This document shows positions 5,210-52,024 of a stretch of DNA of 64,000 nucleotides, piece after piece; position 1 is the stretch's first letter; the number at the start of each line of letters is the position of its first letter. The notes under the pieces were generated by a model that was given only the letters and a program-made list of their open reading frames with translations, was not told the origin of the DNA and ran no database searches. The stretch is from Bacillota bacterium. Lineage in GTDB: Bacteria; Bacillota; GCA-003054495; Carboxydocellales; JAJZSN01. The DNA lies in contig JAJZSN010000003.1 of assembly GCA_021849745.1 (NCBI GenBank), forward strand, positions 891 to 64,890, read 5' to 3'. Made by a program: the position numbers and the translations under genes.

Positions 5210-5254
5210 GCTTTACTATACCATCAGGGGTGGCTTAGAAGTCTTACTATACGG
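5193..5254. repeat. 31-bp tandem direct repeat, 2 copies, overlapping the hpt stop
   Basis: Copy 1 is TCAGGGGTGGCTTATAAGCTTTACTATACCA (5193-5223). Copy 2 is TCAGGGGTGGCTTAGAAGTCTTACTATACGG (5224-5254). A third start, TCAGGTG, follows at 5255. Confidence 0.85.
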
Positions 5255-5394
5255 TCAGGTGTTAGGGGTTAGGTTTTAGGGGTGAGGGTTGGGATTGTCT
5301 TGTATGTTGGGTTCGTAGTTCGTAGTTGTTAGTTGGTGATTCATAGTTTGTAGAATAAGCTGATAGCTGACAGCTGATAGCTGATAGCTGGCAA
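5255..5394. repeat. 140-nt tract of 20 heptamers in a single phase
   Basis: TTAGGGG-type units occupy 5255-5296 and GTTCGTA-type units 5311-5352. CTGATAG/CTGACAG units occupy 5360-5394. The distance 5255 to 5311 is exactly 8x7 nt. The tract runs into the guaA SD (GGGAGG). Confidence 0.9.
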
Positions 5395-22955: not shown

Positions 22956-22975
22956 TTAAGTGAGGACAAGTAAAT

Positions 22976-23046
22976 ATCTCGTATAAGTTTGAGAATATGG
23001 CTCTTACGTTTCTACCGGGCAACCGTAAATTGCTCGACTACGGGGG
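22976..23046 (+). promoter_or_regulatory. Purine riboswitch aptamer, guanine/hypoxanthine class
   Basis: TATAA...AATATGG...GTTTCTACCGGGCAACCGTAAATTGCTCGACTACG matches the G-box core (L2 ATATGG, J2/3 GTTTCTACC, L3 CCGTAAAT). The specificity position in GACTAC is C. P1 pairs CTCGTA with TACGGG. Confidence 0.85.
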
Positions 23047-23218
23047 AAAACTGCTACGCCAAAGGAGAAAAACCCGGACGGATAGGATTCACTCGATTCT
23101 AAGGAGAGAAAAACCATCAGTTCGGGTATACTTTTTAGGAGGTGGTACATGGCTGGTCATTAGCCAGGTTAATTTTCCCTGTGGTTTTAAAAGACAGAAA
23201 GTGAGGAGGCTGAATTAC

Positions 23219-24583
23219 TTGTTTGAAAAGCTTTTTAAGTTGCGAGAGAACAATACTGATGTCAGAACTGAAATCATTGCAGGTTTAACCACTTTCATGA
23301 CCATGGCTTACATCCTGGCGGTCAACCCTTCTATTCTCTCAGGCACCGGGATGGATAAAAACGCAATTTTCTTCGCCACTGCCGTGGCCGCCGGTTTAAT
23401 CACTATTGCCATGGGTCTCTTTGTTAACTTCCCCATCGCGTTGGCGCCTGGTATGGGCTTGAACGCTTATTTTGCTGTTGTGGCGGCCCAGGGCACAGGT
23501 ATTATGTCCTGGCAAGTGGCCCTTGGAGCTATCTTTATTTCCGGTATTATTTTTGTTATTTTAACTGTAACTAACATACGCCAATTATTAATGGTGGCTG
23601 TTCCTAATTCCATTAAGAAGGCCATCACCGTTGGTATTGGTTTGTTTATCACTCTCATTGGACTTAAGATGTCTGGTATCACCAGTGTATTCTTGCACCT
23701 GGGTCCCAGCCTTGAGTCTATTGGGAAATCAGGTTTAGGAACCCCATTATTCTTTGAATGGGATATCAAGATGGGGGCTATCACCCACGGTGATGCTCTG
23801 CTGGCTCTTATTGGTTTGGCTATTACCGGTATCTTGATGGCCAGAAGAATAAAAGGGGCTTTGTTGTGGGGGATTTTGCTCACCACCCTCATCGGTATAC
23901 CCATGGGTATTACCAAGCTGGAAGGTTTGACCTTTGGCCTGCCCGATTTTTCTAATCTGGCAGTGGGTCAACTGGATATCATGGGCGCCATTAATTATGG
24001 AATCATCAGTGTGGTGCTGACCTTTACCTTTGTGGAGTTATTCGATGCCTTCGGAACCCTGGTGGGAACCGCCAATAAAGCCGGATTGCTTGATGAGAAG
24101 GGTAACAACCCAAAAATCGGTAAGGCCATGTTTGTAGACGCTTTCGGGGTCAGCTTCGGCTCCCTGCTGGGAACCAGTACGGTAACCGCTTATATCGAGA
24201 GTGCGGCCGGTATCGGTGAAGGCGGCCGCACCGGTTTAACCGCCGTAACCACCGGTATCTTGTTCTTATTAGCTCTGTTCCTGGCGCCTTTATTCTTGAT
24301 GATTCCTGGTGCTGCCACAGCTCCCGCCCTGATTATCGTAGGTGTGCTGATGGTGGGCGCTATCCGGGATATTGATTTCGATGATTTCACCGAGGCTATG
24401 CCTGCGTTCATGGTTATGGCCCTCATGCCTTTCACCTGGAATATCGCCAACGGAATCTCCGCCGGTATCGTATTCTATTCCATGCTGAAAACTGTTACCG
24501 GCAAGGCCAAAGAAGTTCACTGGCTTATGTGGTTGCTGACCATATTGATTGTAGGAAGATATCTTTTCTTGGGGGGGGAGTAA
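23219..24583 (+). CDS. Purine (guanine/hypoxanthine) permease, NCS2 AzgA/PbuG family
   Basis: LFEKLFKLRENNTDVRTEIIAGLTTFMTMAYILAVNP is the family's N-terminus. GAGGAGG lies upstream of TTG 23219. The preceding 74 ORF-track codons cover the riboswitch. Confidence 0.9.
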   Translation: MFEKLFKLRENNTDVRTEIIAGLTTFMTMAYILAVNPSILSGTGMDKNAIFFATAVAAGLITIAMGLFVNFPIALAPGMGLNAYFAVVAAQGTGIMSWQVALGAIFISGIIFVILTVTNIRQLLMVAVPNSIKKAITVGIGLFITLIGLKMSGITSVFLHLGPSLESIGKSGLGTPLFFEWDIKMGAITHGDALLALIGLAITGILMARRIKGALLWGILLTTLIGIPMGITKLEGLTFGLPDFSNLAVGQLDIMGAINYGIISVVLTFTFVELFDAFGTLVGTANKAGLLDEKGNNPKIGKAMFVDAFGVSFGSLLGTSTVTAYIESAAGIGEGGRTGLTAVTTGILFLLALFLAPLFLMIPGAATAPALIIVGVLMVGAIRDIDFDDFTEAMPAFMVMALMPFTWNIANGISAGIVFYSMLKTVTGKAKEVHWLMWLLTILIVGRYLFLGGE

Positions 24584-24587
24584 AAGA

Positions 24588-24763
24588 AGCTGTCAGCTGT
24601 CAGCTATCAGCTGTCAGCGGCGGGCTTGCATTTTGGGATTTTTCGGACTAGGGGCCGTTGGCCCCTGTCCAGTCTTATTATAACGTTGATAATTACCGCT
24701 TATAGCGGATTATATAGTTAATTTTTTAAGCTGACGGCTGACAGCTGATAGCTGACAGCTGAC
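24588..24763. repeat. Inverted heptamer-arm element: 27-bp perfect arms around a 118-nt loop
   Basis: The left arm (AGCTGTC)2-AGCTATC-AGCTGTC-AGC spans 24588-24618. The right arm AGCTGAC-GGCTGAC-AGCTGAT-(AGCTGAC)2 spans 24729-24763. Positions 24592-24618 are the exact reverse complement of 24737-24763. Confidence 0.95.
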
Positions 24764-26076: not shown

Positions 26077-26108
26077 AGCTGTCAGCTGTCAGCTATCAGC
26101 TGTCAGCT
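26077..26108. repeat. AGCTGTC/AGCTATC heptamer array directly after the purB stop
   Basis: AGCTGTC AGCTGTC AGCTATC AGCTGTC AGCT. The first 31 nt are identical to 24588-24618. Confidence 0.9.
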
Positions 26109-29545: not shown

Positions 29546-30157
29546 ATGAGCCTAAATCTCGGTATTCTGGCTTCGGGCAGCGGGTCTAACTTGCAGGCTA
29601 TTGTAGATGCTTGCGAGAGGGGGGACGTGGTGGCCCGGGTTAAGGTGGTCATCAGTGACAAGGCCGGGGCCTATGCTCTGGAAAGGGCTAGGGCCAAGGG
29701 CATTGCGGCTGTACATATCAATCCCAAAGAGTTTAGCGGGAAAGAGTTCTTTGAAGCGGAGATTGTCAGGGTTTTACAGCTGCATGAGGTTGAACTGGTT
29801 TGTTTGGCGGGATATATGCGTTTGGTTGGGGACAAGTTATTGGGGGCCTTCCCACAGCGGGTGATGAATATTCACCCGGCTCTTTTGCCGGCTTTTCCGG
29901 GCCTACATGGACAGCAGCAGGCCTTTGATTACGGGGTTAGGTTTTCAGGTTGCACTGTTCATTTTGTTGACCATGGCATGGATACCGGACCTATAATTCT
30001 CCAGGCGGTGGTTCCTGTGCTGACCGATGATACGGCTGAGTCCCTGGCGGCCAGGATTTTGGAACAGGAGCATAAGATTTACCCCCAGGCCATACAGCTT
30101 TATGCTGAGGGCAGGCTGAGGGTTGTGGGGCGGAAAGTTATTGTAGCTGGTAGCTGA
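29546..30157 (+). CDS. purN: GAR formyltransferase
   Basis: NIHPALLPAFPG and the VHFVDHGMDTGPII motif. Confidence 0.95.
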   Translation: MSLNLGILASGSGSNLQAIVDACERGDVVARVKVVISDKAGAYALERARAKGIAAVHINPKEFSGKEFFEAEIVRVLQLHEVELVCLAGYMRLVGDKLLGAFPQRVMNIHPALLPAFPGLHGQQQAFDYGVRFSGCTVHFVDHGMDTGPIILQAVVPVLTDDTAESLAARILEQEHKIYPQAIQLYAEGRLRVVGRKVIVAGS

Positions 30158-30212
30158 TAGTTTGTAGCTTTTAGCTGGTTCATAGTTCGTAGTTTGTAGT
30201 TCTTAGTTGGAG
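30143..30212. repeat. Ten in-phase heptamers, from the GTAGCTG type to the GTTCGTA type, spanning the purN stop to the purH SD
   Basis: GTAGCTG GTAGCTG ATAGTTT GTAGCTT TTAGCTG GTTCATA GTTCGTA GTTTGTA GTTCTTA GTTGGAG. The last 5 purN codons and TGA (30155-30157) lie inside the array. Confidence 0.9.
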
Positions 30213-31773: not shown

Positions 31774-31891
31774 TTAGCTGGTAGTTGGTAGCTGATAGCT
31801 GGTAGCCTTGAAAGACAACTTAAGGGTTCGGATAATGACCAAAGAGTTATCATTCAGGCTACAAGCTACAAGCTACCAGCTACAAGCTCCA
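31774..31891. repeat. Imperfect inverted heptamer arms (AGCTGGT type versus AGCTACA type) around a 48-nt loop
   Basis: The left arm spans 31774-31808 and the right arm 31857-31891. My hand alignment gives about 28 of 33 positions pairable, including one G-U. Confidence 0.85.
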
Positions 31892-31906
31892 ACAGGAGGG
31901 AAATAC

Positions 31907-37545: not shown

Positions 37546-37851
37546 ATGACATACCAATCTAAGCTGAAGGACCAATTTGTAGACGGCTTGTTTGAGGCCA
37601 TACTGACTTTAAAGACCCCGGAAGAGTGCTATCGTTTCTTTGAGGATATTGCAACCATCGCGGAAATCAAGGCTTTGGCTCAGCGGCTGGAAGTGGCCAA
37701 GATGTTGGAAAAGGATCTTACCTATACCGCTATTGCAGAAGAGACGGGTGCCAGTACAGCTACCATTAGCAGGGTTAAGCGGGCCTTAAATTACGGTGCG
37801 GATGGTTATAAGCTGGTACTGAAAAGATTGCCGGAAAAAGAAGCTAAATAA
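37546..37851 (+). CDS. yerC: YerC/YecD-family TrpR-like protein
   Basis: LKTPEECYRFFEDIATIAEIKALAQRLEVAKML...TGASTATISRVKRAL. Confidence 0.85.
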   Translation: MTYQSKLKDQFVDGLFEAILTLKTPEECYRFFEDIATIAEIKALAQRLEVAKMLEKDLTYTAIAEETGASTATISRVKRALNYGADGYKLVLKRLPEKEAK

Positions 37852-37908: not shown

Positions 37909-37938
37909 TTGACATTTCTTAAAAACCTATGATACTAT
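37909..37938 (+). promoter_or_regulatory. Sigma-A promoter for hisZ (extended -10)
   Basis: TTGACA (37909-37914), then TGATACTAT with the -10 at 37933-37938. Confidence 0.5.
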
Positions 37939-37993
37939 GATTTTACGTTAATGCTTTACTGTACTAAAGAAAAATGACAAAGGATGATGAAGT

Positions 37994-39184
37994 ATGTCGA
38001 ACTACAACTTACAGACTCAGATTCCTACGGGAGTCAGGGATATTTTACCTGAAGAGGCTTGGCGTAAACGCCTGCTAGAGGACAAGTTTTACCGGGTATT
38101 CAGGAGTTGGGGATACCAAGAAGTCCTTACTCCTACCTTTGAATATTATCAGGCCATGGTTACCGGGGGGGATGCCAAACAAGAGGATAACATGTATAAG
38201 TTCTTGGACCGAAAAGGACAGATTCTCTCCTTAAGACCTGACATGACTACACCAATTGCCAGGTTAGTAGCCACTAGATTGAAAGAGGTGCCTTTACCTT
38301 TACGCCTTTGCTACCTGTCTAATGTATTCAGTCACGAAGACCCTCAGGTGGGACGGCAAAGAGAATACTTTCAAGCCGGGGTGGAATTGTTGGGAACCAC
38401 GGGGGGAGAGGCTGATGCTGAGGTAATTGCCGTGGCGGTGGAAGCCTTAAAGGCTTCCGGTCTCCAGGAGTTCCAGATACATATCGGGCAGATAGAGGTT
38501 TTCAACGGTCTGATGGAGGAACTTGGAATTAGCCAGGAGGTTAAGGAAAAGATAAAAGCAGCTATCGGAAACAAAAATTTTGTAGGGGTAGAAGAGTACC
38601 TCGAAGGTTCTAATCTCTCTCGAGAGCGGAGAGAAGAGCTGGTTCGTTTAATAACCTTCCATGGTGGCAAAGAAGTAATTGAGGAAGGGTATCGGGTGGC
38701 GGGTAATAATCGGGCAAGGGCAGCCCTTGATAACTTAGCAGAAGTCTACGATACGTTGGAGAGTTATGGTGTTGCCGGGAATGTAGCCATCAATTTAGGA
38801 GTGCTTAGGGGATTTGATTATTATACCGGCTTGGTTTTTGAAGGATATAGCTCTGCTCTGGGCTTTCCCATCTGTGGTGGTGGACGTTACGATGGTTTGG
38901 TAGGGCAGTTTGGATATCCCTGCCCGGCTACCGGATTTGCCATCGGGGTTGACAGAGTGTTGTTAGCCTTGGGTAAACAAGGGGACGAGAGTAGCCAGGT
39001 TATTGACTATTTGATTGTTTACGAGGAATCAACGAAAAGTAAGGCTCTGGCTAAGGCACGGGAATTACGGGAACAAGGTCTGGTGGTAGAAACCGAAATC
39101 ATGGGCCGGACGGCAGAGGAAATTCAAGAGTACGTTAAAATGAATGGTATTAGGGAAGTTTTAGCTATAAATAATAATTTTTAG
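37994..39184 (+). CDS. hisZ: ATP phosphoribosyltransferase regulatory subunit
   Basis: HisRS-like catalytic-core paralogue (GVRDILPEEA..., RPDMTTPIAR..., CGGGRYD) without an anticodon-binding function. It is paired with a short-form hisG. Confidence 0.9.
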   Translation: MSNYNLQTQIPTGVRDILPEEAWRKRLLEDKFYRVFRSWGYQEVLTPTFEYYQAMVTGGDAKQEDNMYKFLDRKGQILSLRPDMTTPIARLVATRLKEVPLPLRLCYLSNVFSHEDPQVGRQREYFQAGVELLGTTGGEADAEVIAVAVEALKASGLQEFQIHIGQIEVFNGLMEELGISQEVKEKIKAAIGNKNFVGVEEYLEGSNLSRERREELVRLITFHGGKEVIEEGYRVAGNNRARAALDNLAEVYDTLESYGVAGNVAINLGVLRGFDYYTGLVFEGYSSALGFPICGGGRYDGLVGQFGYPCPATGFAIGVDRVLLALGKQGDESSQVIDYLIVYEESTKSKALAKARELREQGLVVETEIMGRTAEEIQEYVKMNGIREVLAINNNF

Positions 39185-39221
39185 ATAAAATTGGTACTGG
39201 AATGAAAACTTTGGATTACTT

Positions 39222-39250
39222 GGAGGAGTTTGTCGTTGAATGTCGAATTA
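39222..39250 (+). promoter_or_regulatory. Candidate sigma-H-type promoter upstream of agrB
   Basis: GGAGGAGTT, an 11-nt spacer, then GTCGAATTA. The -10 nonamer is almost identical to the one at 4563-4571. Confidence 0.25.
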
Positions 39251-39291
39251 TAATGTAATCTAGTAAAATAATTCCAATGGGGGCGGTTGGG

Positions 39292-39918
39292 ATGCTGGAA
39301 CGCTGGATAGCTAATAAAGCCACGGTTATGGCTCAAGAATTGGGCTATGATGATGATAAGCGGGAAGTGTTGCAGTACTCCATGACTATTCTGTCCACAA
39401 CCATTCTGGGTTTCCTGGCAATAGGTCTTGTGGGAGCTTTGGTTGGTGTGGCTGGACTGGCTTTAACTGCCGGACTCTCGGCTGGGATTCTTCGAGCCTA
39501 TTCTGGTGGCGCCCATGCCACTTCACCGATACGATGTAATGTGGTTGGAGTAATTATTTTTATCGGCATTGGTTTGGTAGCCAAGTATCTAAATGGGTGG
39601 GTAGAACCACTATGGTTGGTTATTCCTATTGCCTTATTAGGTTTTGGTTCGATTTATCTTTATGCTCCGGCTGAGGCTCCGGGTAAACCCATTCAGTCCA
39701 TGCTTAAAAGGGCTACTTTTCGTAGGATTTCTTTTAGCTTAATGGGGTTTTGGACCGGTATAGCCGGTTTTTTGGCGGTGAATTCCATGGCCCTGGATGG
39801 CTTTCTTGTGGCTAGCGCACTGGGGATTTGTTGGCAGAGTATATCTTTAACTCCTGCGGGTCATGGTTTGATAGGATTCCTGGATAAAGGTTTACAGTTT
39901 GGTAATAAAATATCATAA
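39292..39918 (+). CDS. agrB: AgrB-family autoinducer-prepeptide processing membrane protease
   Basis: AYSGGAHATSPIRC has His and Cys 7 residues apart, as in S. aureus AgrB H77/C84. There are multiple TM helices. Confidence 0.85.
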   Translation: MLERWIANKATVMAQELGYDDDKREVLQYSMTILSTTILGFLAIGLVGALVGVAGLALTAGLSAGILRAYSGGAHATSPIRCNVVGVIIFIGIGLVAKYLNGWVEPLWLVIPIALLGFGSIYLYAPAEAPGKPIQSMLKRATFRRISFSLMGFWTGIAGFLAVNSMALDGFLVASALGICWQSISLTPAGHGLIGFLDKGLQFGNKIS

Positions 39919-39988
39919 CCCCGTCACCCACGGTTTACATACTATCCTTGTTTCTATTGCTAAGCGAGTATTAAAAGGGGGAATTCTT

Positions 39989-40111
39989 GTGTTAACAAAA
40001 ATTGCTAATCGTTTGATGGCCTCAGCCCTGTTCGCTTTTGCTTTGTTTGATATCGGTATTGCCAGCGGTGTTATAACCTACCAACCGGAGGTGCCCAAAA
40101 GTCTAAGATAG
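39989..40111 (+). CDS. agrD: AgrD-type autoinducing-peptide precursor (40 aa)
   Basis: Amphipathic leader, then ...IGIASGVITYQPEVPKSLR. This aligns with C. perfringens AgrD ...TSACLWFTHQPEEPKSLRDE. AAAGGGGG lies 7 nt before GTG 39989. The ORF-track version begins too early. Confidence 0.75.
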   Translation: MLTKIANRLMASALFAFALFDIGIASGVITYQPEVPKSLR

Positions 40112-40147
40112 TATATTAAATTGAAATGGTGACGGGGTTAATAAAAT

Positions 40148-40639
40148 TTGGAGGTTTTAGTGTTGGATTTTCGCACAATTTTATTAATTTATTTTCCGGT
40201 AATGAGTTTAGCTGCTTATTCAGGTTTAGCCCTTCTAGGCATAAGAATAAAACTTGTCCCTGCTGTTTTGGCGGGCATAACTGCAGGAACCATGGACTAT
40301 TTCGTTAGGATGACCTACGTACCTTTAGGAATTCCTCCTCTTTTGGATTTGCCACTTATGGTACTAATTTTAGCAATAGTTTTAAAGTTTTTTACTAAAG
40401 AAAGTTGGATGGCAGTAACAGGAGGTAGTATTTTAAGCTACATTCTTATTTCTGTCGGTGATTTAGTTATTTTCCCAATGACATTAAGCATTTTAGGTAT
40501 TACAATAGAACAACTGGTTAAAGATATTTGGCTTGCCCTGATGGCGGGTTACGCAAATTCTTTATTGCTTATTATATCTAGTTTATTATCATTTTTTTAC
40601 AAGTTCAAAATAATAGATTTATCTAGTATGAGAAAGTAA
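40148..40639 (+). CDS. Polytopic membrane protein (about 5 TM), candidate detached AgrC sensor module
   Basis: Entirely hydrophobic helices with no soluble domain. It lies between agrD and the AgrC-like kinase. GTG 40160 (GGAGG 5 nt upstream) is an alternative start. Confidence 0.7.
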   Translation: MEVLVLDFRTILLIYFPVMSLAAYSGLALLGIRIKLVPAVLAGITAGTMDYFVRMTYVPLGIPPLLDLPLMVLILAIVLKFFTKESWMAVTGGSILSYILISVGDLVIFPMTLSILGITIEQLVKDIWLALMAGYANSLLLIISSLLSFFYKFKIIDLSSMRK

Positions 40640-40665
40640 ACGTTTGTAAAATTAGGTGGTGGCTC

Positions 40666-41541
40666 ATGGGAAATATTGATAAGATAAATAAAAAAGCATT
40701 AATCCTGGTTAATGTTATATTAGGCCAGACTTTATTGGTGGTATTTATTGTTACTTATAATAGGTTATGGATTGCCGATGAAATGATGAGAAGGGCGCCG
40801 GATGTCCTTATTACCGCAGTGTTTACTGTTGCAACCGTTATTCTAACGGCATTAGGGGTCTGGTTAATAAGGACTATTATGGAGATGGCTGCTAAAGAAG
40901 TTCAGGCTGAAGCCAACGAAGCCCGGTTAGAAGAAAGCTTGGAATTCATCGAAGTCCTGCGTTCGCACCGTCATGACTACCTTAACCATCTGCAGGTTAT
41001 ATCGGGATTACTGGATTTAGGGATGAATGACAGAGCCAAACAATATATCTGGGAATTGGCTAAAGATATTAAAGAAGAAAAAGGACTCCAATTGGCTGAC
41101 CATGCGGAAATCAATGCCCTCTTGGTCAAAAAATGGGCTCTTGCCGAGGTTAATAAGGTGGCTGTGTCTTTGGAAGTCACTGCAGATTTAAGAAGTATGA
41201 CCATACCTTCCTATGATTTAACCAGAATTCTTGGCAACCTTATTGAAAACGCCATTCAGGCTACCACTCAAGTGGATGAAAGCCAGAGAAAAGTTGAAGT
41301 TGGAATCCATGAGGATCCTACAAAATGGATATTTATTGTATTTAATCAGTTACCCATTATTCCCCTTGAAATGCAACAGAGGGTTTTTGAGAGGGGTTTT
41401 TCCACTAAAGGAACTGAGGGTAGGGGTCTAGGTTTGGATATAGTTTGCAATTTGTTGGAGAAATATAATGGAACCATTGATTTGGTGAGTAAGGACGGTC
41501 TTGGCACCGTTTTCACGGCGAAAATACCTAAGAAGCAATGA
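40666..41541 (+). CDS. AgrC-like (HPK10) histidine kinase with only 2 TM helices
   Basis: H-box LRSHRHDYLNHLQ (compare AgrC FRHDYVN). N-box ILGNLIENAIQA. G-box FSTKGTEGRGLGLDIV. Confidence 0.85.
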   Translation: MGNIDKINKKALILVNVILGQTLLVVFIVTYNRLWIADEMMRRAPDVLITAVFTVATVILTALGVWLIRTIMEMAAKEVQAEANEARLEESLEFIEVLRSHRHDYLNHLQVISGLLDLGMNDRAKQYIWELAKDIKEEKGLQLADHAEINALLVKKWALAEVNKVAVSLEVTADLRSMTIPSYDLTRILGNLIENAIQATTQVDESQRKVEVGIHEDPTKWIFIVFNQLPIIPLEMQQRVFERGFSTKGTEGRGLGLDIVCNLLEKYNGTIDLVSKDGLGTVFTAKIPKKQ

Positions 41542-41546
41542 TGCTT

Positions 41547-41575
41547 AAAAAGCCCTTCTAAGGGCTTTTTGTTTT
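41547..41575 (+). terminator. Rho-independent terminator closing the agr cassette
   Basis: AAAGCCCT pairs with AGGGCTTT around a 4-nt loop, followed by TTGTTTT. Confidence 0.8.
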
Positions 41576-41590
41576 AATACTTTTGTTCTA

Positions 41591-41620
41591 TTGACATAGG
41601 TAAAGAGGGTGTGCTAAAAT
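41591..41620 (+). promoter_or_regulatory. Sigma-A-type promoter for hisG and downstream genes
   Basis: TTGACA (41591-41596), an 18-nt spacer, then TAAAAT (41615-41620). Confidence 0.5.
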
Positions 41621-41667
41621 TTTATCATGCTAATGCTTTAACGAATTAAAGTGATGGAGGATTGTTT

Positions 41668-42333
41668 ATGGTTGGTCAAGATTATTTAACTATGGCATTG
41701 CCTAAAGGGACGTTATTTAAGCCGACTCTGAAGTTATTGAAGTTAGCAGGGTTTGATACCGGGGAAATGGAGCAGGATAGTAGAAAATTGCTTTTTGTGG
41801 ATGAGGCCCATAAGGTGAAATACATCATTTGTCGGCCTACTGACATACCTACCTTTGTGGAGTATGGGTCGGCAGACCTTGGTTTTGTAGGCAAGGACAC
41901 CATAGTAGAGCAGAAGAAGGATGTTTATGAACTGCTGGATTTGAAGTACGGCTACTGCCGTTTTGTGGTGGCGGTGCCCCAGGGGACTCATGAGGAGAAG
42001 ACTTGGGAGCAATTGGCCCATACCAGGGTGGCTACTAAATTTCCCAAGGTGGCAGAGGAGTTTTTCCGGGAAAAGGGACTGCAGATGGAGATTATTAAGT
42101 TGCACGGAAACATTGAGCTTGCGCCAATTGTGGGGTTGTCTGAAATGATTGTGGATATCGTGTCTTCCGGGAGGACTTTGAGGGAGAATAATCTGGTGAT
42201 TAAAGATGAGATATTCAAGTCTACCACCAGGCTGATTGCTAACCGGGTGAGCCACCGGATGAAGTCGGGGCGCATAAATCCGGTTATCGACGGGGTCAGG
42301 GGTTTGATTGAACAGGGGGTTGAGTTGGAATGA
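41668..42333 (+). CDS. hisG: ATP phosphoribosyltransferase, short form
   Basis: [10 protein letters not shown] start and the [14 protein letters not shown] motif. GGAGG lies 7 nt before ATG 41668. Confidence 0.95.
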
Positions 42334-43617: not shown

Positions 43618-44156
43618 ATGGCCGGCGGGGCGGTCCGGGAGTTGACCAGGTGCCCATGAAAGCCGATTTTGCCTGGGATGTGGAGGGTTTGCAGGCCGCT
43701 GCGGGGCGGGATGTGACCCGGGTGGTATTTCTCTGTTCCCCCAATAACCCCACAGGCGGGTGCCTTGACCGGGCTGCGTTGGAAGGGATTTTGGCGGCTG
43801 TGGCGGCCCTGGAAAACCGGGAGTATTTCAGGCCTCAGCTAGAGGCAATTATAGCGGGGCGTCAATGGTTGAGCGAAGAGTTAATCGGGATTGAGAGTGT
43901 GGAGGTTTTTCCTTCTAAAGCGAATTTCATTCTCTTCCGGGTGCCGGGCTGTGCCGGAGAAGTTTTCCGTAGGCTGGCAGAGGAGGGTGTTTTTATAAGG
44001 TATTTTAATGAGGCGCCGGGTTTGGAAAAATGTTTGCGAATTAGTGTCGGAAAAAAAGAGGATAATTCAGCTTTTGTAGAGAAAATTAGAAATATCTTAG
44101 GGCAGCTATCAGCTGTCAGCTATCAGCTAAAAAATAGGCGGGAAAGAAAGCGGTGA
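43618..44156 (+). pseudogene. hisC: Histidinol-phosphate aminotransferase remnant
   Basis: A 13-codon N-terminal stub (43618-43659) is in a different frame from the 168-aa ORF. That ORF joins ...VVFLCSPNNPTGG...LAAV directly to ...AALENREYF...PSKANFILFRV.... The DEAY and SK(PLP-Lys) segments are absent, as are about 140 N-terminal aa. Confidence 0.8.
44104..44128. repeat. AGCTATC/AGCTGTC heptamer array translated as the tail of the hisC remnant
   Basis: AGCTATC AGCTGTC AGCTATC AGCT encodes ...QLSAVSYQL.... Confidence 0.85.
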
Positions 44157-45378: not shown

Positions 45379-46085
45379 TTCCGGCCATCGATTTACGGGG
45401 TGGGAAATGTGTGCGGTTGGTTGAAGGCAAGGTTGAGAATGAAACCATTTATTCCCATGAACCCGTGGAACAGGCTCTCAAATGGCAGGACAAGGGGGCC
45501 CGGATGCTGCACCTGGTGGATTTGGACGGGGCATTTGCCGGTCGGCCCAAGAACCTGGATGTAATTAAGGAGATTGTTCGGGCAGTGGATATCCCGGTTC
45601 AACTAGGCGGCGGAATACGAACCCTTGAGACTATCGAAATGCTCCTGGAGATGGGGATAAACCGGGTTATCCTGGGCAGTATCGCCATCTATAAGCCGGA
45701 TTTGGTAAAAGAGGCCTGCAGCCGGTATGCTGACCGGGTAGTGGTAGGCATTGACGCCAAGGACGGCCTGGTGGCCATCGAGGGTTGGGAATCAACTGTT
45801 GATAAAACTACTGTGGATCTGGCTCTAGAGATGAAAGAAGCCGGCGTTAAACGGATTATTTTTACCGACACCAGGCGGGACGGCACTTTAAAGGGTCCCA
45901 ACGTGGAGTCAACCAAAGAACTGGCCGAGAAAACCGGCCTTAAAGTAGTGGCCTCCGGCGGGGTATCCTCTCTGGACGACATCAAGGCTCTCAAGGAAAT
46001 CGAACCCCTAGGCGTAGACAGCGTCATCCTGGGCAAAGCCCTCTACACCGGAGCAGTGGATCTGGAGGAGGCGCTTAGGATTTAG
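45369..46085 (+). CDS. hisA: ProFAR isomerase
   Basis: LIPAIDLRGGKCVRL start and the later (beta/alpha)8 motif ...IASGGVSSLDDI.... There is a 10-nt overlap with hisH. Confidence 0.95.
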   Translation: MLLIPAIDLRGGKCVRLVEGKVENETIYSHEPVEQALKWQDKGARMLHLVDLDGAFAGRPKNLDVIKEIVRAVDIPVQLGGGIRTLETIEMLLEMGINRVILGSIAIYKPDLVKEACSRYADRVVVGIDAKDGLVAIEGWESTVDKTTVDLALEMKEAGVKRIIFTDTRRDGTLKGPNVESTKELAEKTGLKVVASGGVSSLDDIKALKEIEPLGVDSVILGKALYTGAVDLEEALRI

Positions 46086-46204
46086 CTGTCAGCTATCAGC
46101 TATCAGCTGTCAGCCGATGGGGTATGCTTATCCCGTCAAATAAACTCCAGACATGTATTATAGCTATAAGCTACTGGCTATTAGCTAGAAAGCCAGCTAT
46201 AAGG
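46084..46204. repeat. Two heptamer arrays after hisA: AGCTGTC type (46084-46114) and AGCTATA/AGCTACT type (46161-46204)
   Basis: The first array begins inside the hisA TAG stop codon. The second contains the hairpin CTGGCT...AGCCAG. Confidence 0.85.
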
Positions 46205-47277: not shown

Positions 47278-47296
47278 GGTTGGGTAATATTTGCGG

Positions 47297-47379
47297 TCAG
47301 GGGTTAGGTTTTAGGGGTAAGGGTGGGGTATTCTTGGATGAAGGGTTCATAGTTCGTAGTTTATAGTTCGTAGATTAGG
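47297..47379. repeat. TTAGGGG-type then GTTCGTA-type heptamer tract; paralogue of 5255-5352
   Basis: CGGTCAGGGGTTAGGTTTTAGGGGTAAGGGTGGGGTATTCTTGGATGAAGGGTTCATAGTTCGTAGTTTATAGTTCGTAG aligns with 5252-5345 apart from one heptamer indel and scattered substitutions. Confidence 0.85.
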
Positions 47380-48378: not shown

Positions 48379-49476
48379 ATGGATTTCTTTGGATCCGGTA
48401 AAGAGTTAATCTTTCTTAACGAGGTCATACGGGAACTAAGCTCAAGCTATCATTTTGATGATAATATTAATGCTCTTTTAATTAATGCGGCTACGGCTAC
48501 CATCAGTGAAGCCGGTTGTCTACTTACTGTAAATAATAACTATAAAAAGGGACGAATCACCGTTTTTGAAGTCTCGGCAACTTATGGAGGGATTAATCAT
48601 CGATGTCTGGACTTCTTAGCAAAAGAGAGTTTCTTTATTCAAAGTTTTCTTGAGAATCCTGTGAGTAGAATAGTGGACGGTGTTGAAAAACACTTTCTGC
48701 CTCTTAAATTAATGGATCCCTTATTACGTTCTATGTTAGTTGTTCCTATTGTTTTGGACAAGCGAGTTTTGGGCCTATTGATTTTGCTTCACCGACATCA
48801 AGGAAGGGAAGAACATTTACCCCAGTTTACGGAAAGGGATAGCCAATTGATGGGTATTTTGGCCCATCAGGCAGCCCTAATGATAGAGAACAACTATTTG
48901 AAGATGGAAAACCAGCGCCGCAGTTTATATCTCAAAACCATCACTGCTTTAAGTCAAGCTATAGAAGCCAAGGACATTTACACCAGAGGTCATTCGGAGC
49001 GAGTAGCAGCCCTGGCCACAGGGTTGGGTGCAGAGTTAAAATTATCTCCGGACGAAATAGCCAACATAAATTATGGGGCTTTGCTCCATGATGTAGGTAA
49101 AATTGGTATCAGTGAAGCTATTCTTAATAAAGAGGGTCGTTTGGATCCGGAAGAATACGAAATTATGAAAAAGCACCCTGAAATTGGCGCCAATATTTTG
49201 AGTGAAGTGGATTTTCTTGAGGATGCCCTGGATGTGGTGACACACCATCATGAGCGTATTGACGGGTCAGGCTACCCAAAGGCTCTGGTTCAAAAGGAGA
49301 TTCCCTTGGCGGCCAGGATTGTGGGGATTGCCGATGCTTGGGATGCTATGACTTCAGACCGGGCTTACCGGCAGGCTATGCCGGAAAATATGGCAGTAAA
49401 TCAGCTGCGCAGAGGGGCGGGTACTCAGTTTGATGCCTACCTTGTGGAAAGATTTCTTTGGATGGTACTTAGCTAG
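48379..49476 (+). CDS. GAF-domain / HD-GYP-domain protein (c-di-GMP phosphodiesterase type)
   Basis: HSERVA...LHDVGK...HHERIDGSGYP. GGAGG lies 7 nt before ATG 48379. Confidence 0.9.
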   Translation: MDFFGSGKELIFLNEVIRELSSSYHFDDNINALLINAATATISEAGCLLTVNNNYKKGRITVFEVSATYGGINHRCLDFLAKESFFIQSFLENPVSRIVDGVEKHFLPLKLMDPLLRSMLVVPIVLDKRVLGLLILLHRHQGREEHLPQFTERDSQLMGILAHQAALMIENNYLKMENQRRSLYLKTITALSQAIEAKDIYTRGHSERVAALATGLGAELKLSPDEIANINYGALLHDVGKIGISEAILNKEGRLDPEEYEIMKKHPEIGANILSEVDFLEDALDVVTHHHERIDGSGYPKALVQKEIPLAARIVGIADAWDAMTSDRAYRQAMPENMAVNQLRRGAGTQFDAYLVERFLWMVLS

Positions 49477-49478
49477 AA

Positions 49479-49630
49479 GTTAGAGGTTGGAGGTTCGAGG
49501 TTAGAAGGGTTTGGCTGGCAATGATTATTCTTTGAGATAGAATATATATAACTACGATATGCAATTCAGATGTACCCCTTGGGGGTTTTTTTATTAATCT
49601 AACCCCAAACTTCCAACCTCTAACCTCTAA
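49479..49630. repeat. Inverted heptamer arms of GTTNGAG type around a loop that contains a terminator-like hairpin
   Basis: The left arm GTTAGAG GTTGGAG GTTCGAG GTTAGAA GGGTTTG spans 49479-49513. The right arm CTAACCC CAAACTT CCAACCT CTAACCT CTAA spans 49599-49630. Positions 49479-49495 pair with 49608-49624 (17 bp, one G-U). Confidence 0.9.
49574..49592 (+). terminator. Short GC hairpin plus T7 inside the loop of the 49479-49630 element
   Basis: ACCCC-TTG-GGGGT followed by TTTTTTT. The stem is only 5 bp. Confidence 0.4.
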
Positions 49631-51831: not shown

Positions 51832-51832
51832 C

Positions 51833-52024
51833 AGCTGTCAGCTATCAGCTATCAGCTGTCAGCAGGCGGGCTGAACTTTTTGGTCGTTTTGCGGAGGGAT
51901 TATTTCTGGAACTACAAAGTGAGTATACGGAATTTTATTCTAAATTTAACGTAATCTTTTAAAATTTTTAAGCTAACAGCTGACAGCTGACAGCTGATAG
52001 CTAAAAAAACAGCTGATAGCTACT
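51833..52024. repeat. Inverted heptamer-arm element, sibling of 24588-24763
   Basis: The left arm AGCTGTC AGCTATC AGCTATC AGCTGTC AGC spans 51833-51863. The right arm AGCTAAC (AGCTGAC)2 AGCTGAT AGCT...AGCTGAT AGCTACT spans 51971-52024. Positions 51847-51863 are the exact complement of 51986-52002 (17 bp). Confidence 0.9.

Follow-up and report, generated by a model that had tools for sequence, protein, structure and literature searches.

Several divergent or incomplete relatives of the Staphylococcus aureus agrBDCA operon have been described in clostridia. Clostridioides difficile Agr1, which consists of agrB1D1 only, and Clostridium perfringens agrBD are without a receptor kinase, their signals are read by components encoded elsewhere, and Agr1 has been linked to sporulation (PMC10602386, PMC11210211, PMC2706048). 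Agr operons that have a receptor kinase but no agrA are documented in acetogenic clostridia, among them system 1 of Clostridium autoethanogenum (agrD1-agrC1-agrB1, next to a spo0E-like gene), and the authors of that study propose that the regulator is encoded elsewhere (PMC8748961). In Clostridium thermocellum, a precursor with an S-x4-Y-x-P layout gives rise to a Ser-lactone cyclic pentapeptide, as established by liquid chromatography-tandem mass spectrometry (LC-MS/MS), and its agrD lies outside any agr operon, with no AgrB or AgrC candidates (PMC5322536). Clostridia often carry incomplete agr loci, and the route by which such signals act, as in the promotion of sporulation by C. difficile AgrD1 (PMC11210211), is an open question. 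Here we describe an agr-type cassette that occupies the 2.4 kb between the histidine genes hisZ and hisG in a 64,000-nucleotide stretch of DNA from a member of the Carboxydocellales (contig JAJZSN010000003.1), which is analysed as a whole and is referred to below as the window. The cassette comprises agrB, a 40-codon agrD, a gene for a five-helix membrane protein, a gene for a 291-residue kinase, and a terminator.

The cassette resembles the S. aureus operon in its AgrB peptidase with a His/Cys dyad, in a short AgrD whose five-residue ring is followed by an E-V-P-K tail, in a polytopic receptor kinase with a module matching structure 6e52, and in the fast co-divergence of peptide ring and sensor. 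It differs from that operon in having no agrA and no recognised RNAIII or AgrA-box promoter, in carrying its receptor in two genes, in using Ser or Thr rather than Cys as the ring nucleophile, in a DHp domain that matches Pfam SPOB_a, and in a promoter that is sigma-H-like. With C. autoethanogenum system 1 it shares the combination of producer, peptide and receptor kinase with no response regulator, whereas that operon has a single agrC, a different gene order and no link to his genes (PMC8748961). The precursor layout, Ala followed by Ser-x4 and then Tyr-x-Pro, is that of the C. thermocellum lactone peptide, but here producer and receptor genes are adjacent to agrD (PMC5322536). In contrast to C. 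difficile Agr1 and C. perfringens agrBD, the cassette keeps a receptor kinase, although in two pieces.

The initial annotation had proposed an agr-type cassette with its own terminator, followed by a promoter for hisG, and all of these elements were recovered. The four genes, all on the forward strand, were found from their open reading frames (ORFs) and Pfam or NCBIfam domains. They are agrB (39277 or 39292 to 39918; AgrD-processing membrane peptidase, PF04647, 9e-35), agrD (39989-40111; 40-residue autoinducer precursor, TIGR04223, 33.1 bits against a cut-off of 19), the membrane-protein gene (40148-40639; about 158-163 residues with ~5 hydrophobic segments, the likely start being GTG 40160 or TTG 40163) and the kinase gene (40666-41541; SPOB_a plus HATPase_c/HATPase_c_5). 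A signal scan located both the strong intrinsic terminator that closes the cassette (41546-41575; 11-bp stem, then a T run) and the near-consensus TTGACA-N18-TAAAAT promoter of hisG (41591-41620). We consider it likely that these 2.4 kb constitute an autonomous agr-type peptide-signalling module, with promoter, four genes and terminator, that is inherited at a permissive intergenic site and has its output elsewhere. The cassette is a member of a widespread, undescribed variant of agr that has no regulator gene, a predicted lactone signal and a probable split receptor, together with a putative sigma-H/Spo0A-box promoter and an RNA stem around agrD.

The match of AgrB to PF04647 covers profile positions 8-185 of 185, and ATG 39292 is suggested as the real start, as relatives begin at MLERW. 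In the translation, the catalytic His/Cys pair lies seven residues apart in GGAHATSPIRC, a spacing that we take to be like that of S. aureus AgrB. AgrD ends in DIGIA-SGVIT-YQPEVPKSLR, and the pattern S/T-x4-Y-[QE]-P-x-[VL]-P is kept in nine AgrD homologues. The first ring position is Ser or Thr in all nine, never Cys, and stands five residues before an invariant Tyr-x-Pro, while the ring residues that follow it are hypervariable (GVIT, GALT, GIAS, VLFG, GYFG, GSNG, GFSA and GWSG). Because this Ser/Thr layout matches the C. thermocellum precursor with its LC-MS/MS-confirmed lactone, the product of the window AgrD is predicted to be the Ser-lactone cyclic pentapeptide SGVIT. From the domain assignments, AgrB would process the 40-residue AgrD, and the motif and the C. 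thermocellum precedent suggest that the cyclic pentapeptide would be made and exported.

The membrane protein had no match in Pfam, NCBIfam or the PDB; a search of PDB sequences with its profile likewise returned nothing, and no full-length AgrC sequence was matched. When the profile was searched against 1.84 billion representative proteins, the family comprised 82 clusters at 50% identity, about 78 of which are stand-alone proteins of roughly 150-185 residues. In four clusters (P0039, P0051, P0095 and P0098), the family forms the N-terminal 140-155 residues of kinases of 428-458 residues, in which it is followed by two more hydrophobic segments and a SPOB_a/GHKL kinase module. An RHDFxNH H-box is present in P0051, P0095 and P0098, and P0039 is without a histidine there. 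One such fusion, WP_159426232.1 of Desulfolucanica intricata (locus L152; annotated as a sensor kinase), is encoded directly after agrB and a 42-codon agrD, with no regulator.

The window kinase combines two hydrophobic segments with a SpoOB-type DHp domain (H-box SHRHDYLNHLQVISGL; Pfam SPOB_a 2.9e-19) and a GHKL ATPase domain (HATPase_c 2.3e-18, HATPase_c_5 1.8e-14). Among solved structures, its family matches best the kinase module of S. aureus AgrC (6e52, E 1.8e-20). By hydropathy, the ~5 segments of the membrane protein and the 2 of the kinase compare with 7 in the natural fusions. Alone, the kinase aligns to positions 134-393 of the NCBIfam Staphylococcus AgrC model; the two window proteins joined align collinearly to 48-393, and the natural fusions align from positions 28-42. 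Homology to AgrC extends over the kinase module and, through the fused homologues, over the whole receptor. The receptor is encoded in two ORFs (163 and 291 residues), each with its own start and ribosome-binding site, and not as the single polypeptide of AgrC. The membrane protein is the fastest-evolving protein of the cassette, which together with the hypervariable AgrD ring is the pattern expected of a signal-sensor pair. We conclude from these comparisons that the membrane protein and the kinase probably encode the two halves of an AgrC-like receptor and would associate physically. The peptide would then be sensed by a two-polypeptide receptor in which a five-helix sensor and a two-helix kinase together give the seven-helix AgrC architecture. 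No description of a split AgrC was found in the literature searched, outside which a Firmicutes-wide agr survey fell.

A two-gene receptor could also arise from a stop codon or frameshift in agrC, in which case the cassette would be a non-functional remnant. Gene decay does occur at the locus, since the neighbouring hisC is a deletion remnant, and in L011, the closest relative, agrB (9135-9760) is split into two overlapping ORFs, by either a frameshift or an assembly error. However, the split is the rule across the 82 clusters, the kinase gene comes with a ribosome-binding site (aggtggtgg) and a start codon of its own, the membrane-protein and kinase genes overlap by 14 nt in locus L006, the H, N and G2 motifs of the kinase are invariant, and the ratio of nonsynonymous to synonymous substitution rates (dN/dS) is 0.07-0.22. 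We regard a decayed agrC as highly improbable. If the receptor is instead naturally split, as we favour, signal recognition and kinase activation would be genetically separable and sensor subunits could be swapped. For annotation, 'hypothetical' membrane proteins of ~160 residues that adjoin short SPOB_a kinases can now be interpreted as subunits of a receptor. In Orenia metallireducens (L037 8001-12273; NZ_PVNB01000005.1), a short kinase gene is followed by four tandem sensor-type paralogues (106-167 residues), agrB and agrD, a layout that suggests that one kinase could serve several alternative sensor subunits.

The statement in the initial annotation that neither the cassette nor the window carries a LytTR/AgrA gene was borne out across the 64 kb. 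Searches for receivers using phmmer with CheY, AgrA, Spo0F and PhoB against all six-frame ORFs of the window gave nothing better than an E of about 1, and an iterated LytTR-domain profile (jackhmmer) had no match among the window ORFs. In other loci, regulators were readily picked up with these queries. A LytTR ORF was found in none of 22 cassette-family loci within the 8-10 kb of flank fetched per side, and the sole receiver proteins near these loci are NtrC-like, each with its own kinase, 2-3 kb upstream (L057, L077 and L090). Because all 22 loci are without a LytTR gene, the absence of agrA is, by gene content, a family trait and not a local loss. The sister clade of the cassette kinases is made up of short SPOB_a kinases, mostly of Lachnospiraceae, and a LytTR regulator lies nearby in 53 of its 68 loci. 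The most likely output partner would be an unlinked regulator of the LytTR type. The kinase would autophosphorylate on the H-box histidine and hand the phosphate to a regulator encoded elsewhere, most probably LytTR-type. In the sister clade, the short SPOB_a kinase forms a cluster with NfeD, the flotillin FloA and the LytTR regulator in those same 53 loci (L019-L092; for example L031 7944-10929, Butyrivibrio sp. FCS014), which ties the two-component system to membrane-microdomain genes.

The hisZ-agrB spacer, 92-107 nt long, holds the predicted promoter AGGAGTT-N11-GTCGAAT (39224-39248). The Bacillus sigma-H consensus is AGGAATT-N14-CGAAT (PMC6849360), and that of the Spo0A box is TGTCGAA (PMC3485338). 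Against the sigma-H elements AGGAWWT (-35) and (R)NNGAAT (-10), a consensus from other lineages, the window promoter has one mismatch in the -35 element. Its -10 region contains a perfect Spo0A box (39241-39247), one of four TGTCGAA sites in the window. The motif AGG-N4-N11/12-GTCGAA[AT] precedes cassette units in six independent lineages (the window clade, the L009 clade, both divergent units of L006, both units of L015, Orenia L037, and L099), and most of the copies contain the Spo0A box. The strict GTCGAA[AT] form was used, the loose sigma-H expression being too common in the background; 13 of its 18 matches in 0.59 Mb of cassette loci precede cassette units, compared with 9 matches in 3.28 Mb of other loci. 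Neither AgrA direct-repeat boxes nor a divergent transcript were recognised by eye, no dedicated LytTR-box search having been made, and AGGA-N-GTCGAAT was the sole conserved upstream element. These motifs suggest transcription from a sigma-H-like promoter whose -10 overlaps a Spo0A box, which would tie expression of the module to the transition-phase or sporulation-initiation state of the cell.

Such a promoter invites the possibility that the kinase, having no dedicated regulator, feeds the density signal into Spo0F/Spo0A by phosphorylating or dephosphorylating it, with the sigma-H/Spo0A-box promoter closing the loop. Apart from the kinase/NtrC-like pairs of L057, L077 and L090, no regulator adjoins the cassette in the 22 loci, the promoter with its perfect TGTCGAA box is conserved in six lineages, and the SpoOB-type DHp domain has matches at about 2e-6 to 1ixm and 1f51, which are Spo0B structures. 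Thermincola, Carboxydocellales and Orenia, the named host lineages of the loci, are spore-formers. Agr peptides promote early sporulation in C. difficile, Desulfotomaculum has a phosphorelay (PMC11210211), and the AgrA-less agr operons of the acetogens adjoin a spo0E-like gene (PMC8748961). However, LytTR regulators accompany most of the closest relatives that the kinase has outside the cassette family (53 of 68 loci), and a SpoOB-type DHp domain is common to the DcuS/CitA family and is not Spo0-specific. The kinases known to act on Spo0F/Spo0A have HisKA-type DHp domains. A direct route into Spo0F/Spo0A is a live alternative but seems unlikely, and we continue to favour an unlinked LytTR-type regulator as the partner of the kinase. 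We view as similarly doubtful the broader proposal of a new two-subunit receptor (an exchangeable five-helix sensor on a two-helix kinase) that reports to Spo0F/Spo0A, is gated by sigma-H and Spo0A~P, and has its agrD mRNA excised or stabilised. The cassette family offers a tractable case for signal read-out in incomplete agr loci, as its promoter motif and missing regulator point to sporulation-linked control.

The agrD gene is itself enclosed by a long-range RNA stem. An inverted repeat, UAACCCCGUCACC (39916-39928) with GGUGACGGGGUUA (40128-40140), forms a perfect 13-bp stem that closes a 200-nt domain holding all of agrD, and it is present in both the minimum free energy and centroid folds (z = -2.1). 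Analogous stems with different sequences occupy the same position in L005, L011, L009, L013, L014, L006 and L036 (duplex z-scores -2 to -3.6), and between the stems of L009 and L014 an A-U pair is exchanged for U-A and a G-U pair for A-U. A stem bracketing agrD was not detectable in L099, L015, L016, L037 or the fused-receptor locus L152. The structure is probably a processing or stabilising element that would raise AgrD output over that of the other gene products.

The history of the cassette was addressed through relatives found by exact-protein look-ups and alignment-guided scans; hisZ alone as the query gave distant Epulonipiscium matches only. The sequence of the window kinase also occurs in a metagenome-assembled genome (MAG), GCA_027321445.1, and, among named relatives, the one nearest to the membrane protein comes from a 'Thermincolia bacterium'. 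The initial annotation had viewed the cassette as a later acquisition, a reading that synteny does not support: the order hisR-hisZ-agrB-agrD-membrane protein-kinase-hisG is found in five other Thermincolia genomes or metagenome contigs (L005, L011, L009, L013 and L014, the last a Carboxydocellales MAG). Identities to the window for hisZ, hisG, kinase and membrane protein are 92, 96, 88 and 79% in L011, 81, 93, 68 and 52% in L005, and 52, 71, 37 and 26% in L009, so that cassette and flank identities fall in the same order across the three loci. Synonymous divergence (dS) between the window and L011 is similar in the kinase gene (0.84), hisZ (1.05) and hisG (0.95). For the same pair, the kinase has a dN/dS of 0.068, the membrane protein one of 0.217 and AgrD one of 0.229, and all cassette genes are under purifying selection. 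The guanine-plus-cytosine content (GC) of the cassette also tracks that of each host. Given the shared junction, the co-divergence with the flanks and the host-tracking GC, the cassette is not a recent arrival in this genome, and the module would have been inherited vertically within the clade of the window.

A late horizontal acquisition would have broken the his operon, created the hisG promoter and uncoupled hisZ from hisG-IE. The premise of the initial annotation that hisZ and hisG were ancestrally adjacent is sound, as in many relatives (Heliobacteria, Carboxydothermus, some Desulfotomaculum and Thermincola) the two range from overlapping to separated by a ~450-bp gap. The cassette is also patchy in Thermincolia, as Thermincola ferriacetica L094 and L098 have none between hisZ and hisG, and its GC at third codon positions (GC3) is 0.28-0.44, below the 0.46-0.64 of the his genes. 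Set against this are the five genomes with the same arrangement, co-divergence and similar dS, the agreement of cassette GC with each host, the hisG promoter and HisR operator in cassette-less relatives along with operators at both window promoters, and the lack of boundary repeats and mobility genes. We judge a late acquisition to be quite unlikely, and vertical inheritance of the module to be the better account.

Genes of the window have a mean GC of 0.463 +/- 0.052, and the cassette had been described as visibly AT-richer. This description applies chiefly to the membrane-protein gene, a true outlier (GC 0.33, GC3 0.28), with the kinase gene at 0.40, and does not apply to agrB, which at 0.46 has the native level. 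The tandem heptamer arrays of surrounding operons are indeed missing from the cassette, but their absence is uninformative because they are missing from the whole 34.8-44.1 kb stretch, including hisR, hisZ, hisG and hisD. No convincing boundary repeats or target-site duplications flank the cassette, and no mobility genes accompany it. The idea that the spacer between hisZ and agrB repeats the 5' end of hisZ was rejected, as the two have only ATGTCGAA in common.

The his genes on either side of the cassette follow a known regulatory scheme. In a published description of the HisR regulon, hisR lies directly upstream of the his operon in 20 of 20 Peptococcaceae genomes, and the operator is a 20-bp palindrome with the Firmicutes consensus cacTTTAnnnnnnTAAAgtg (PMC9413887). 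In the window, likewise, hisR (37546-37851; a YerC/YecD-type TrpR-family histidine repressor; Pfam Trp_repressor 2.4e-33, NCBIfam TIGR02531 yecD_yerC 150 bits against a cut-off of 42) lies directly 5' of hisZ (37994-39184; regulatory subunit of ATP phosphoribosyltransferase; Pfam tRNA-synt_His 4.5e-86, NCBIfam hisZ model above cut-off), and the operators match cacTTTAnnnnnnTAAAgtg. A promoter scan placed the hisZ promoter, TTGACA ... TACTAT, and its operator core CTTTACTGTACTAAAG (37954-37969) at 37909-37969. The hisG promoter, which has an extended -10 TG, and its core CTTTAACGAATTAAAG (41636-41651) lie at 41591-41651, upstream of hisG (41668-42333; PF01634, 8.7e-56), the first gene of a hisG-hisIE unit. 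Perfect cores of the form CTTTA-N6-TAAAG occur exactly twice in the 64 kb, at 37954 and 41636, each 16 nt past a -10 element; with one mismatch allowed, there are 4 matches against 3.65 expected. An Rfam scan of the window gave no T-box or his leader, and RNA-based his control is therefore not in play.

The cassette had been credited with uncoupling hisZ from hisG, a claim that is not supported. The hisG promoter and operator are present in the cassette-bearing L005, L009, L011, L013 and L014, but also without a cassette in L093 and L095, with near-matches in L094, L098 and L113; in Thermincola-type genomes that have no cassette, 70-450 bp lie between hisZ and hisG. The split of the his genes into two HisR-controlled units thus predates the cassette. 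In the window and in related Thermincolia and Desulfitobacteriia, the his locus consists of a hisZ unit and a hisG-IE unit, each with an operator, an arrangement that is not given in the part of the regulon description considered here (PMC9413887). In the window, hisZ and hisG are separate transcription units that are probably still co-regulated, as both promoters carry HisR operators. By leaving each gene its operator, the cassette would leave his regulation intact, and an interrupted his operon is not necessarily a deregulated one.

A phylogeny of the kinases bears on how often such a cassette has reached the his locus. In a neighbour-joining tree, the window clade, L006, the L009 clade and L018 form one clade with 100% bootstrap support, and the kinase of a cassette in Thermincola ferriacetica BM5_bin.18 (L099) falls outside it. 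That four-gene agr cassette (L099 3019-7648) lies between hisR and hisZ and has its own promoter and terminator. Since L099 falls outside the clade, the three-gene his neighbourhood has received at least two distinct cassettes within Thermincolia. This recurrence might mean that the linkage is functional and that quorum signalling is coupled to histidine biosynthesis, as would happen if transcription from the HisR-controlled hisZ promoter ran on into agrB, and there is no terminator between hisZ and agrB in the window or in L011. However, a terminator-like hairpin follows hisZ in L005, L009 and L013, and a weak one follows hisR in L099; every cassette has its own promoter and terminator; and in other lineages the family resides elsewhere, next to alaS in L006 and in further settings in L015, L016, L036, L037 and L152. 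Unrelated cargo has also entered the hisZ-hisG junction, in Desulfosporosinus, in Desulfitobacterium and, as a TetR gene, in L011. Functional coupling of the cassette to histidine is for these reasons unlikely, and we give it very little weight. The simplest reading of the recurrence is a permissive site upstream of HisR-operated promoters.

The junction is indeed a recurrent site of gene gain. It holds 1.4-4.3 kb of unrelated cargo in Desulfosporosinus and Desulfitobacterium (L119, L122-L141 and L151), comprising phosphofructokinase, an HsdM N-terminal fragment and an HD-domain protein in the former and Crp, an arylsulfotransferase and a major facilitator superfamily transporter in the latter. 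The HisR operator core at hisG was kept in all three cargo loci checked (L122, L133 and L151). In L011, a divergent TetR gene and a gene for a 195-residue protein have been added between the kinase gene and hisG (11549-13005). The spacer between hisZ and hisG in cassette-less Thermincola is ~400 bp long (L094 6552-6979, L095 6588-6988, L098 6534-6979 and L113 6579-6979) and contains a small conserved reverse-strand ORF, Cys-rich and zinc-ribbon-like, upstream of the hisG promoter. These spacers were considered as possible cassette remnants, but none were seen by eye, no translated search having been made.

Several observations weigh against the reading of the cassette as an inherited, autonomous module with a split receptor and a distant output. 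The kinase tree places L006, a locus unlinked to his, closer to the window clade than the L009 clade is, and a single ancestral insertion at the hisZ-hisG junction is not proven. The kinase module scores higher with a DcuS/MalK subfamily model (104 bits) than with the Staphylococcus AgrC model (71 bits). In sequence, the membrane protein is weakly linked to the AgrC sensor, and concatenation adds only 7 bits; because the gain is so small, the case for a split receptor leans mainly on the natural fusions. A looser sigma-H motif is present upstream of 15% of control genes, and the sigma-H/Spo0A-box assignment applies consensus sequences of Bacillus and Clostridioides to a Thermincolia lineage that is uncultured. 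Finally, the output step is a guess.

Other features of the window were noted in passing. At the hisC position (43650-44156) there is a 168-residue remnant from which residues 1-131 and about 168-256 of the full-length L009 HisC are missing; at the same place, L005 and L011 show nothing but a gap of about 280 bp. Either the genome has a functional hisC at another site or the pathway is incomplete. The single match of the Rfam scan was a purine riboswitch aptamer (RF00167, 79.8 bits; 22959-23060) upstream of a permease-type gene (22997-24583). The tandem heptamer arrays have 4-6 copies and lie in intergenic gaps of the pur and his operons, at 5253-5390, 24588-24763, 26077-26108, 30143-30208, 31775-31892, 44103-44129, 46084-46187, 47295-47373, 49474-49630 and 51832-52002. 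They are often paired in reverse-complement phase, (AGCTGTC)n ... (AGCTGAC)n, around a spacer of ~110 nt between a stop codon and the next ribosome-binding site, and could form long hairpins.

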